374 nucleotides of DNA from Escherichia coli (GTDB lineage: Bacteria; Pseudomonadota; Gammaproteobacteria; Enterobacterales; Enterobacteriaceae). The position numbers were made by a program, and so were the translations under genes. The number at the start of each line of letters is the position of its first letter. Within the stretch, counting starts at the first letter, position 1. Of this stretch, positions 1 to 374 are shown piece by piece. The stretch lies in assembly GCF_003334815.1 (NCBI RefSeq), contig NZ_QOWO01000133.1; one strand, 5' to 3'. The notes under the pieces are model-generated. The model was given only the letters and a program-made list of their open reading frames with translations. It searched no databases and was not told the origin of the DNA.

Positions 1-348
1 GATTTTCTGTATGCCGAGGCGTATGTGTACGCGCTGGCGCAAAAAATGATGCCGGAATATCAGGGAGGCTTCTGGCACTTCATCCGCCTGCCGGACGGTG
101 GCGGTTACATGATGCCGGATGGCGACCGTTTCCACATGGTGAACGGTGCAAACTGGTTTGACCGTACCGTGAGTGCTGATGCCGCAGGCATCATTCTGAC
201 TTCCCTTGTGATTAACCGCCAGTTGTGGCTGTACCACGACAGCGGGGATGCAGGACTGACCCAGCTTTACCGGATGCGCGATGCGCAGTTGTGGCGTCAC
301 ATCGAATTTCACCCCGAATGCAACGCGATTTACGCGGCACTGGACTGA
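1..348 (+). CDS. ArdB/KlcA-family antirestriction protein, 5'-partial (N-terminus lies upstream of the window)
   Basis: Frame +1 has no stop from nt 1 to TGA at 346-348; the ORF track's 25..348 sits in this frame and the 8 codons before it (DFLYAEAY) are also open. Translation carries motifs I recall from this family: Y-x-GG-x-W (58-75), DGGGYMMPD (94-120, cf. KlcA 'DGGFYMAPD'), VNG (139-147), SADAAGI (172-192, cf. KlcA 'SADAAGI'), and C-terminal Y-R-x-RD...HPEC-x-AIY-x-A-x-D ending at the stop (cf. KlcA '...HPEAAAIYRAID', YfjX-like '...HPE..AI..ID'). The match is from memory, not a search. The GTG at 25 is a track artifact, not the start, because family homology continues upstream of it and homologs have ~35-45 more N-terminal residues. 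Confidence 0.8.
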   Translation, partial: DFLYAEAYVYALAQKMMPEYQGGFWHFIRLPDGGGYMMPDGDRFHMVNGANWFDRTVSADAAGIILTSLVINRQLWLYHDSGDAGLTQLYRMRDAQLWRHIEFHPECNAIYAALD

Positions 349-359
349 TTAACGGACGG

Positions 360-374
360 GGCGGCAATGCCGCC
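360..374 (+). other. GC-rich stem-loop 12 nt after the stop (possible terminator stem or intercistronic structure), truncated by window edge
   Basis: Seen directly: ggcggc (360-365), loop aat (366-368), gccgcc (369-374) gives a perfect 6-bp all-G/C stem. G359 and G358 could extend it if nt 375-376 are CC. No downstream T-tract is visible because the window ends, so the function is unassigned. Confidence 0.3.

Follow-up and report, generated by a model that had tools for sequence, protein, structure and literature searches.

The 374-nt stretch of Escherichia coli DNA analysed here, referred to below as the window, is carried with 100% identity by more than 1000 E. coli plasmids and has matches in 3508 of 5426 complete E. 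coli genomes, nearly all of them plasmid-borne. A blastn search of the plasmid collection gave at least 5000 records, and all the matches listed were at least 95% identical. Plasmid pM217_I1 (locus L001) was taken as the reference locus, a window coordinate being the L001 coordinate minus 5000. Most of the window is occupied by the 3′ part of an antirestriction gene, whose start codon lies 78 nt before the window and whose full length is 141 codons. In a 100% match the product is annotated as 'antirestriction protein' (WP_001198928.1), and other records name the gene YubI or yfeB and the next gene yubJ or yfeC. Every homologue, the 99%-identical cluster among them, carries Pfam family PF03230, and comparison of the window protein with solved structures recovers KlcA (2KMG, E 1.8e-18) and ArdB (2WJ9, 3e-7); NCBIfam contains no model for this protein or for the DUF1380 protein next to it. 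On the strength of these matches, the gene is assigned to the KlcA/ArdB-family (PF03230) antirestriction genes of IncI1/IncF plasmid leading regions. On L001 it forms part of a same-strand array (methylase, DUF1380, hypothetical gene, klcA-like, DUF1380, 63-aa gene, ssb, psiB, psiA and ardA) that constitutes a plasmid leading region, and the junction found on the F′ plasmid of JM109 is identical to that of the window. The features at this junction are as follows.

1..348, + strand: 3′ part of the antirestriction gene (ORF of 107 codons plus stop, open at the 5′ end of the window)
346..348, + strand: stop codon TGA of the antirestriction gene (ORF and annotation)
349..357, + strand: 9-nt spacer TTAACGGAC between the TGA and the stem
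358..365, + strand: 5′ arm of the stem, GGGGCGGC (fold and covariation)
366..368, + strand: loop AAT (junction alignments)
367..369, + strand: ATG in the loop and 3′ arm, no gene start (MPPL*; not conserved in relatives)
369..374, + strand: 3′ arm GCCGCC, extended by CC at 375-376 beyond the window to give GCCGCCCC (fold and covariation)

Two further elements lie within the coding part of the window. An exact 11-nt direct repeat, ATGATGCCGGA, occupies positions 46-56 and 109-119 and codes twice for Met-Met-Pro (in KMMPEY and YMMPDG); it is probably either a coincidence or an old internal duplication. A second perfect hairpin, of 7 bp (TGATGCC-GCA-GGCATCA), is found at 177-193. DNA 91-100% identical to the gene is also present in assemblies labelled Streptomyces morookaense, Streptomyces sp., Acinetobacter idrijaensis, and Oscillospiraceae/Oscillibacter and Collinsella MAGs (L003, L005-L008, L010 and L011). 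These copies most likely reflect contamination or mis-binning and not a true host range.

The element of interest is a G/C stem directly behind the stop codon. As the original prediction described, GGCGGC (360-365) pairs perfectly with GCCGCC (369-374) around the 3-nt loop AAT (366-368), with an ATG at 367-369 and a purine-rich GGACGGGG at 354-361; a repeat search of the window returned the same element as a 7+1+7 palindrome (360-366/368-374). The downstream sequence of exact-match plasmids adds two pairs, G358/G359 with C376/C375, so that the full stem is 8 bp long and all G/C (GGGGCGGC/GCCGCCCC, 358-365/369-376) within a 19-nt palindrome, GGGGCGGCAATGCCGCCCC. The suggestion that it belongs to a longer palindromic element holds only in the trivial sense of these two additional pairs, no longer element being present. 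The complete stem-loop folds at -18.4 kcal/mol (z = -3.8), a stability that none of 200 shuffles matched. It begins 10 nt past the stop codon and ends 4 nt ahead of the SD of the next gene, and the spacer between stop and stem is constant in the enterobacterial clade (9 nt, or 8 nt where the stem has an extra outer pair).

From the window alone the case for this stem is weak, a perfect hairpin of at least 6 bp arising in 42% of dinucleotide shuffles of the 374 nt and a G/C-only one in 4%; the stem is placed beyond chance by covariation and by its presence in every homologous lineage sampled. A minimum free energy fold of the window pairs 334-342 with 365-373, which is an artefact of the last two 3′-arm bases being missing from the window and vanishes once the complete arm is present, and weak outer pairs around the hairpin in a 91-nt fold are without conservation. 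Rfam gave no match at E values up to 1 across L001 4000-7000, and a promoter and terminator scan of the window found no site. Nor is the element a REP/BIME-type repeat, as it occurs in single copy in the 10.4-kb locus even with three mismatches allowed.

Relatives were taken from the protein database as homologues with 65-80% protein identity, their contigs were fetched and the junctions compared; a genome scan with the protein gave near-identical copies only, which are not usable for covariation. The stem is kept in all close copies (91-100% identical), one of which has the loop GAT. Among the relatives, stem and loop read GGGACGGC-TGT-GCCGTCCC in L017, GGGGCAGC-ATT-GCTGCCCC in L027 and CGGGGCGC-CTG-GCGCCCCG in L031, whilst L029 has one G:T pair in the stem, L026 has a loop of 12 nt, and L019-L023 and L033 carry the window's stem with loop GAT ahead of quite different downstream sequence. 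Loop variants therefore comprise GAT, TGT, ATT, CTG, CCCGA and the 12-nt form, a range of 3 to 12 nt. In an 11-sequence alignment of the eight pairs, 97.7% of cells are paired. Two-sided changes have occurred in three of the eight pairs, each in another lineage (G:C to A:U twice and G:C to C:G once), in addition to one G:U pair; sliding the partner gave no such changes, and 0-1 of 500 column shuffles reached the observed values. A fourth two-sided change, of the innermost pair from C:G to U:A, is found in an IncR plasmid. The stem differs from that of the window at 10 of 160 sites (6%), compared with 25-35% in the last 150 nt of coding sequence. On the evidence of these substitutions, the stem is shown to be kept by selection as a structure. 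The arm GGGGCGGC is nearly invariant at 65-80% protein identity, a degree of conservation that exceeds the need of pairing alone; this excess could reflect sequence-specific recognition or recent recombination between plasmids, as opposed to purely thermodynamic selection.

The sequence beyond the window bears directly on two roles proposed for the hairpin in the original prediction, those of an intrinsic terminator with its T-tract further downstream and of a structure that hides the start codon of the next gene. The sequence behind the stem reads TGTAAAGGAGACGAGAAC ATG TAC TGT and contains no T-tract. The ATG at 367-369 opens only four codons before a stop (MPPL*) and is not conserved, the loops of relatives being TGT, ATT or CTG. 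The next gene, a DUF1380 gene (yubJ) of the small kind that had been anticipated, starts on the same strand at window-equivalent position 395, 19 nt past the stem, with its SD, AAGGAG, at 381-386 and thus outside the stem, and the start 8 nt further on. No genuine start codon or SD lies inside the stem. In a partition-function fold, the SD is predicted to be unpaired at 73% with the native stem, 50% with the 3′ arm scrambled and 82% with the hairpin deleted, from which it follows that the hairpin does not sequester the ribosome-binding site. The four-codon frame at 367, the lack of a T-tract behind the stem (TGTAAAGGAG, with no site in the scan) and the position of the DUF1380 start and SD together rule out start-codon sequestration and, as far as the sequence goes, a canonical terminator in this lineage, although some relatives have 3-4 T at this position and pAsa5 has T6. 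The original prediction would have been abandoned had the downstream sequence shown no T-tract and no ORF at 367 and had the stem not been conserved; the first two were indeed observed, but the stem proved strongly conserved, with compensatory changes.

The start of the DUF1380 gene itself (window-equivalent 395-413, L001 5395-5413) reads ATG TAC TGT ACT GTT and contains ACTGT twice. In pTB201-like and NDM6 plasmids (L012 1696-1709, and L014 at the same position) one ACTGT copy is present, which brings a TAA into frame three codons past the ATG. For these plasmids the annotation pipeline calls unusual, spurious upstream DUF1380 starts, one overlapping the klcA stop and one 31 nt inside klcA, both reading through the hairpin. 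Either the gene has been inactivated in these plasmids, or a small switch of variable length is at work.

What lies behind the hairpin varies. It is retained upstream of DUF1380, a 136-aa gene, ardA, a 59-aa gene or the 63-aa gene; in L017 and L027 it is kept with 450-1200 nt of non-coding DNA behind it; and in L008 and L015 the DUF1380 gene is missing and the hairpin stands ahead of the 63-aa gene. Conversely, the paralogous upstream DUF1380 copy has the same AAGGAGACGAGA leader but no hairpin. The structure stays with the antirestriction gene's 3′ end irrespective of the downstream content. In L008 and L015 (junction 1647-1700 in the latter), the sequence runs from the hairpin and TGTAAAGGAG into another leader and the 63-aa gene, and in RA3 an unrelated hairpin is followed by CTTAAAGGAGGTG, resembling the TTAAAAGGAGGTG of L023. 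It seems that the hairpin moves together with the A/U-rich stretch and the SD, while the genes downstream are exchanged. The arrangement H148/L015, with hairpin and AAGGAG but no DUF1380 gene, is treated as modular gene shuffling, and H149/L016, in which klcA and the hairpin are lost in a deletion running from the methylase gene, as a plain deletion. The hairpin was considered as a recombination site, for which the break-points of these two arrangements give no evidence.

More distant KlcA genes were retrieved by tblastn with the KlcA structure sequence as query (RA3 being NC_010919.1). All of them carry a strong stem-loop at a distance of about 4-27 nt from the stop codon, often unrelated in sequence to that of the window.

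RA3 (IncU): -19.3 kcal/mol, followed by CTTAAAGGAGG
pBP136 (IncP-1 beta): -31.3 kcal/mol, loop UUCG
pKJK5 (IncP-1 epsilon): -22.8 kcal/mol, loop UUCG
pOXA-48-type (IncL/M): -18.3 kcal/mol, loop GUGA
Legionella plasmid: -15.5 kcal/mol, two G:U pairs
pAsa5: -14.4 kcal/mol, followed by T6 and a convergent gene, a true terminator
IncR: -18.4 kcal/mol, innermost pair changed from C:G to U:A

Across 17 lineages, the stability of the post-stop hairpin is matched by a median of 1%, and by no more than 8%, of the other 34-nt windows of its locus. Since the best of 30 overlapping windows was taken as the post-stop value, the chance per locus is several-fold above these fractions. Multiplied over independent lineages, that chance is still small. 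A post-stop hairpin thus accompanies KlcA-family genes in at least seven plasmid groups, which is mildly notable.

Other strong G/C hairpins without a T-run follow genes in L001, namely DUF1380 copy 1 (-19.1), the 63-aa gene (-20.3) and ardA (-17.6); boundary hairpins of this kind are located at L001 3695-3716, 6012-6033 and 6054-6071 and at L035 1136-1153. Canonical terminators follow two other L001 genes, and 0 of 300 random 60-nt coding windows reach -18. This suggests that the klcA hairpin is one of several cistron-boundary structures and that such structures are a general design in the leading region.

Several lines of evidence address whether the hairpin acts as RNA or as DNA. UNCG and GNRA tetraloops stabilize RNA. 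Loops of these types recur in the distant hairpins, and are also found after ardA (UCCG) and DUF1380 copy 1 (UGCG). Because of their G:U pairs, the hairpins of three lineages fold better on the sense than on the antisense strand: Edwardsiella (-16.6 versus -8.3 kcal/mol), Legionella (-15.5 versus -6.7 kcal/mol) and pBP136 (-31.3 versus -23.4 kcal/mol). Most hairpin variants are perfect palindromes and uninformative on strand, so the asymmetry rests on these three distant lineages, whose hairpins are perhaps not homologous. In the single-strand promoter model, the leading-region genes are transcribed from the transferred strand, which is their antisense strand (PMC12672017), and the bias towards the sense strand therefore points to the transcript and not the entering DNA. 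Loops of 3 to 12 nt and unrelated sequences argue in turn against an operator in duplex DNA.

The expression of the unit has been described. Within minutes of the transfer of the IncI1 plasmid pESBL, and likewise of F, strong induction of the klcA operon sets in; it comes from a class 2 single-strand promoter, of which a sister copy is located 5′ of ardA (PMC12672017). In L001, a non-coding repeat of about 315 nt with 96-97% identity is located at 4585-4900, upstream of klcA, and at 10060-10374, just upstream of ardA, and matches the published class 2 promoters. By an established mechanism, a stem-loop located 3′ of an operon's first cistron blocks 3′-to-5′ exonucleases, and the first cistron outlasts the rest of the operon (PMC5927463). 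The klcA locus has the corresponding arrangement, a stable stem-loop 3′ of a cistron in a same-strand multi-gene unit, with pairing conserved through sequence changes.

Taken together, the hairpin is best described as a putative conserved stem-loop of the sense-strand RNA that marks where the antirestriction (klcA/ardB-type) cistron ends. Its anatomy and the analogy with known systems lead to the proposal that it stabilizes the mRNA as a protective 3′ structure, to which we give about even odds, more than to any other reading. The gene klcA is the first of a short operon (klcA, the DUF1380 gene and the 63-aa gene) that is switched on very early in the recipient from the single-strand promoter just upstream. 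In the proposed mechanism, RNA polymerase would mostly pass the hairpin, as no U-tract follows it. After cleavage further downstream, or any other ending of the transcript, the G/C stem just past the stop would block 3′-to-5′ exonucleases such as PNPase and RNase II, and the antirestriction segment would outlive the distal mRNA and be expressed at a higher level, in the manner of malE-malF. Against this, 8 bp is at the small end of the structures shown to block exonucleases. The hairpin possibly also serves as a weak attenuator; minor pausing or attenuation of polymerase could occur, more probably in relatives with 3-4 U past the stem.

The main rival explanation, which we regard as unlikely, gives that last activity the leading part: the hairpin would be a leaky intrinsic terminator or attenuator that releases or pauses some polymerases and so lowers downstream transcription. 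A G/C-rich stem-loop (8 bp, 3-nt loop, -18.4 kcal/mol) directly past the first gene of an operon is what such a terminator requires, and relatives with the same stem have 0-5 T in the first eight nucleotides past it, some of them with 3-4 T (TTTTAAAG, TTTTAAGT or TTTAAGG). In pAsa5 a canonical T6 terminator occupies the same position, and in L017 and L027, where the next 450-1200 nt contain no gene, the unit of transcription closes with the hairpin. On the other side, the tail in the window, TGTAAAGG, falls short of a U-run (about five or more of the eight nucleotides directly 3′ of the stem), the window lineage having two U in eight (UGUAAAGG); a consensus scan of L001 4500-6500 lists other sites, none of them at the hairpin; and several relatives have no U-run after the stem (GTTGAGG, ACTGTAAC). 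By sequence, a canonical terminator would appear to be ruled out in the window's lineage, with relatives grading towards one. The published record also speaks against attenuation, as the klcA unit is described as one induced operon (PMC12672017). In RA3, a GC-rich palindrome without a long T-run lies between klcA and orf04 ('klcAt'), and the segment 3061-3110, placed between a promoter and xylE in E. coli, did not lower expression (PMC7414963). The cloned fragment is exactly the post-stop hairpin located here in RA3 (L036). With 3-4 U past the stem in several relatives, the attenuator role is not separable from the stability role.

A second alternative, which we consider improbable, sees the hairpin as serving the downstream cistron: once RNase E has cut upstream, it would protect or insulate the 5′ side of that cistron, as in papBA, and keep the SD accessible. 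Protective 5′ hairpins are a known mechanism (PMC5927463), and in many lineages the stem is followed by an A/U-rich stretch and SD (TGTAAAGGAG, TTAAAAGGAGG, TTTAAGGAGC and, in RA3, CTTAAAGGAGG). The fall in predicted SD accessibility from 0.73 to 0.50 on scrambling the 3′ arm is in keeping with this role, but deletion of the hairpin raises the prediction further, to 0.82. The hiding of a start codon, as one form of such an element, is refuted by MPPL* and by the placement of start 395 and its SD outside the stem, and neither the persistence of the hairpin in L017 and L027, with no gene for 450-1200 nt, nor the lack of a hairpin upstream of the paralogous DUF1380 copy with the same leader is expected of a structure serving the next gene.

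There is also a slim chance that the element is a duplex-DNA palindrome bound by a dimeric regulator, or a functionless palindrome that arose by chance or hitch-hiking. The palindrome is perfect over 19 bp, its stem sequence is unusually invariant, and a 6-bp hairpin is not rare in shuffles of the window. Yet loop lengths of 3 to 12 nt would alter the spacing of operator half-sites, distant lineages keep the hairpin and not the sequence, and G:U pairs are meaningless in duplex DNA, whilst the compensatory changes contradict chance and, like the 6% divergence of the stem against 25-35% in its flanks, argue against neutrality. Slimmer still is the prospect of a single-stranded DNA hairpin on the transferred strand, serving as a priming signal, nuclease block or promoter accessory during conjugative entry: the leading region does enter the recipient single-stranded and uses hairpin promoters (PMC12672017), a near-perfect palindrome folds on either strand and similar hairpins stand at several other leading-region gene ends, but the transferred strand is the template, on which the G:U variants fold far worse, KlcA genes that lie elsewhere than in leading regions, namely in the stability module of RA3 and at klcA-klcB of IncP-1, have hairpins as well, and the element is 19 nt long and downstream of its gene, as against the large stem-loops of single-strand promoters (the repeat of about 315 nt upstream of klcA).

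A more far-reaching proposal, to which we attach very little probability, is that KlcA-type genes, and perhaps ArdA-type genes too, share the hairpin as a family-wide cis element needed for their burst expression from single-stranded templates. An incoming single strand has no non-template partner by which the nascent RNA could be displaced; a very stable RNA hairpin formed where the cistron ends might peel the transcript off the template or set the 3′ end in the absence of a U-tract. Were this true, the element would signal termination or release specifically in transcription from single-stranded templates and would not be an ordinary stabilizer.

The protective 3′ stem-loop, to return to the preferred reading, is of interest since the antirestriction genes of leading regions need fast and strong expression if the plasmid, which often bears resistance genes, is to survive entry into a new host. 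If the stem-loop sets the persistence of the antirestriction message relative to the genes behind it, it would be a small part of the establishment programme. For annotation, the ATG in the loop is no gene start and the hairpin is not to be labelled a terminator. In other respects the hairpin is an ordinary cistron-boundary structure.

Comparison with known systems places the hairpin among several types of element. With the Frpo/ssi promoters (Masai & Arai 1997; classes 1-3 in PMC12672017) it shares the leading-region neighbourhood and the hairpin theme, and a class 2 element is located about 100-340 nt upstream of the start of the window gene. Those promoters are long imperfect hairpins that rebuild -35/-10 boxes, lie upstream and act on the transferred strand, whereas the klcA hairpin is 19 nt long, contains no promoter-like site, is located downstream of its gene and favours the sense strand. 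Intrinsic terminators resemble it in having a G/C-rich stem and short loop directly past a stop, with 3-4 U in relatives and a full terminator in pAsa5; the window lineage differs in its tail UGUAAAGG, which forms no U-tract, and in the same-strand gene with a strong SD that follows 19 nt on. The 'klcAt' palindrome of RA3 is alike in its position (8 nt past a KlcA-family stop), G/C-rich composition, lack of a long T-run and the CTTAAAGGAGG behind it, which resembles the sequence here and in L023, but it has a different stem (AGCCCCGG.../...CCGGGGCT) and a different downstream gene and belongs to a stability module and not a leading region; RA3 KlcA is only distantly related and was retrieved through pBP136 KlcA (40% identity). 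The closest parallel in the proposed role is differential operon decay, as in malE-malF (Dar & Sorek 2018, PMC5927463). The malE-malF element consists of REP repeats and many of the structures of Dar & Sorek lie inside the next coding region, whereas the klcA hairpin is a single, short, unique intergenic hairpin of 8 bp, known here from sequence. In common with those systems, a stable stem-loop lies 3′ of the first and presumably most needed cistron, no U-tract follows and the structure is conserved, and the model predicts that the upstream gene would be the more stable.
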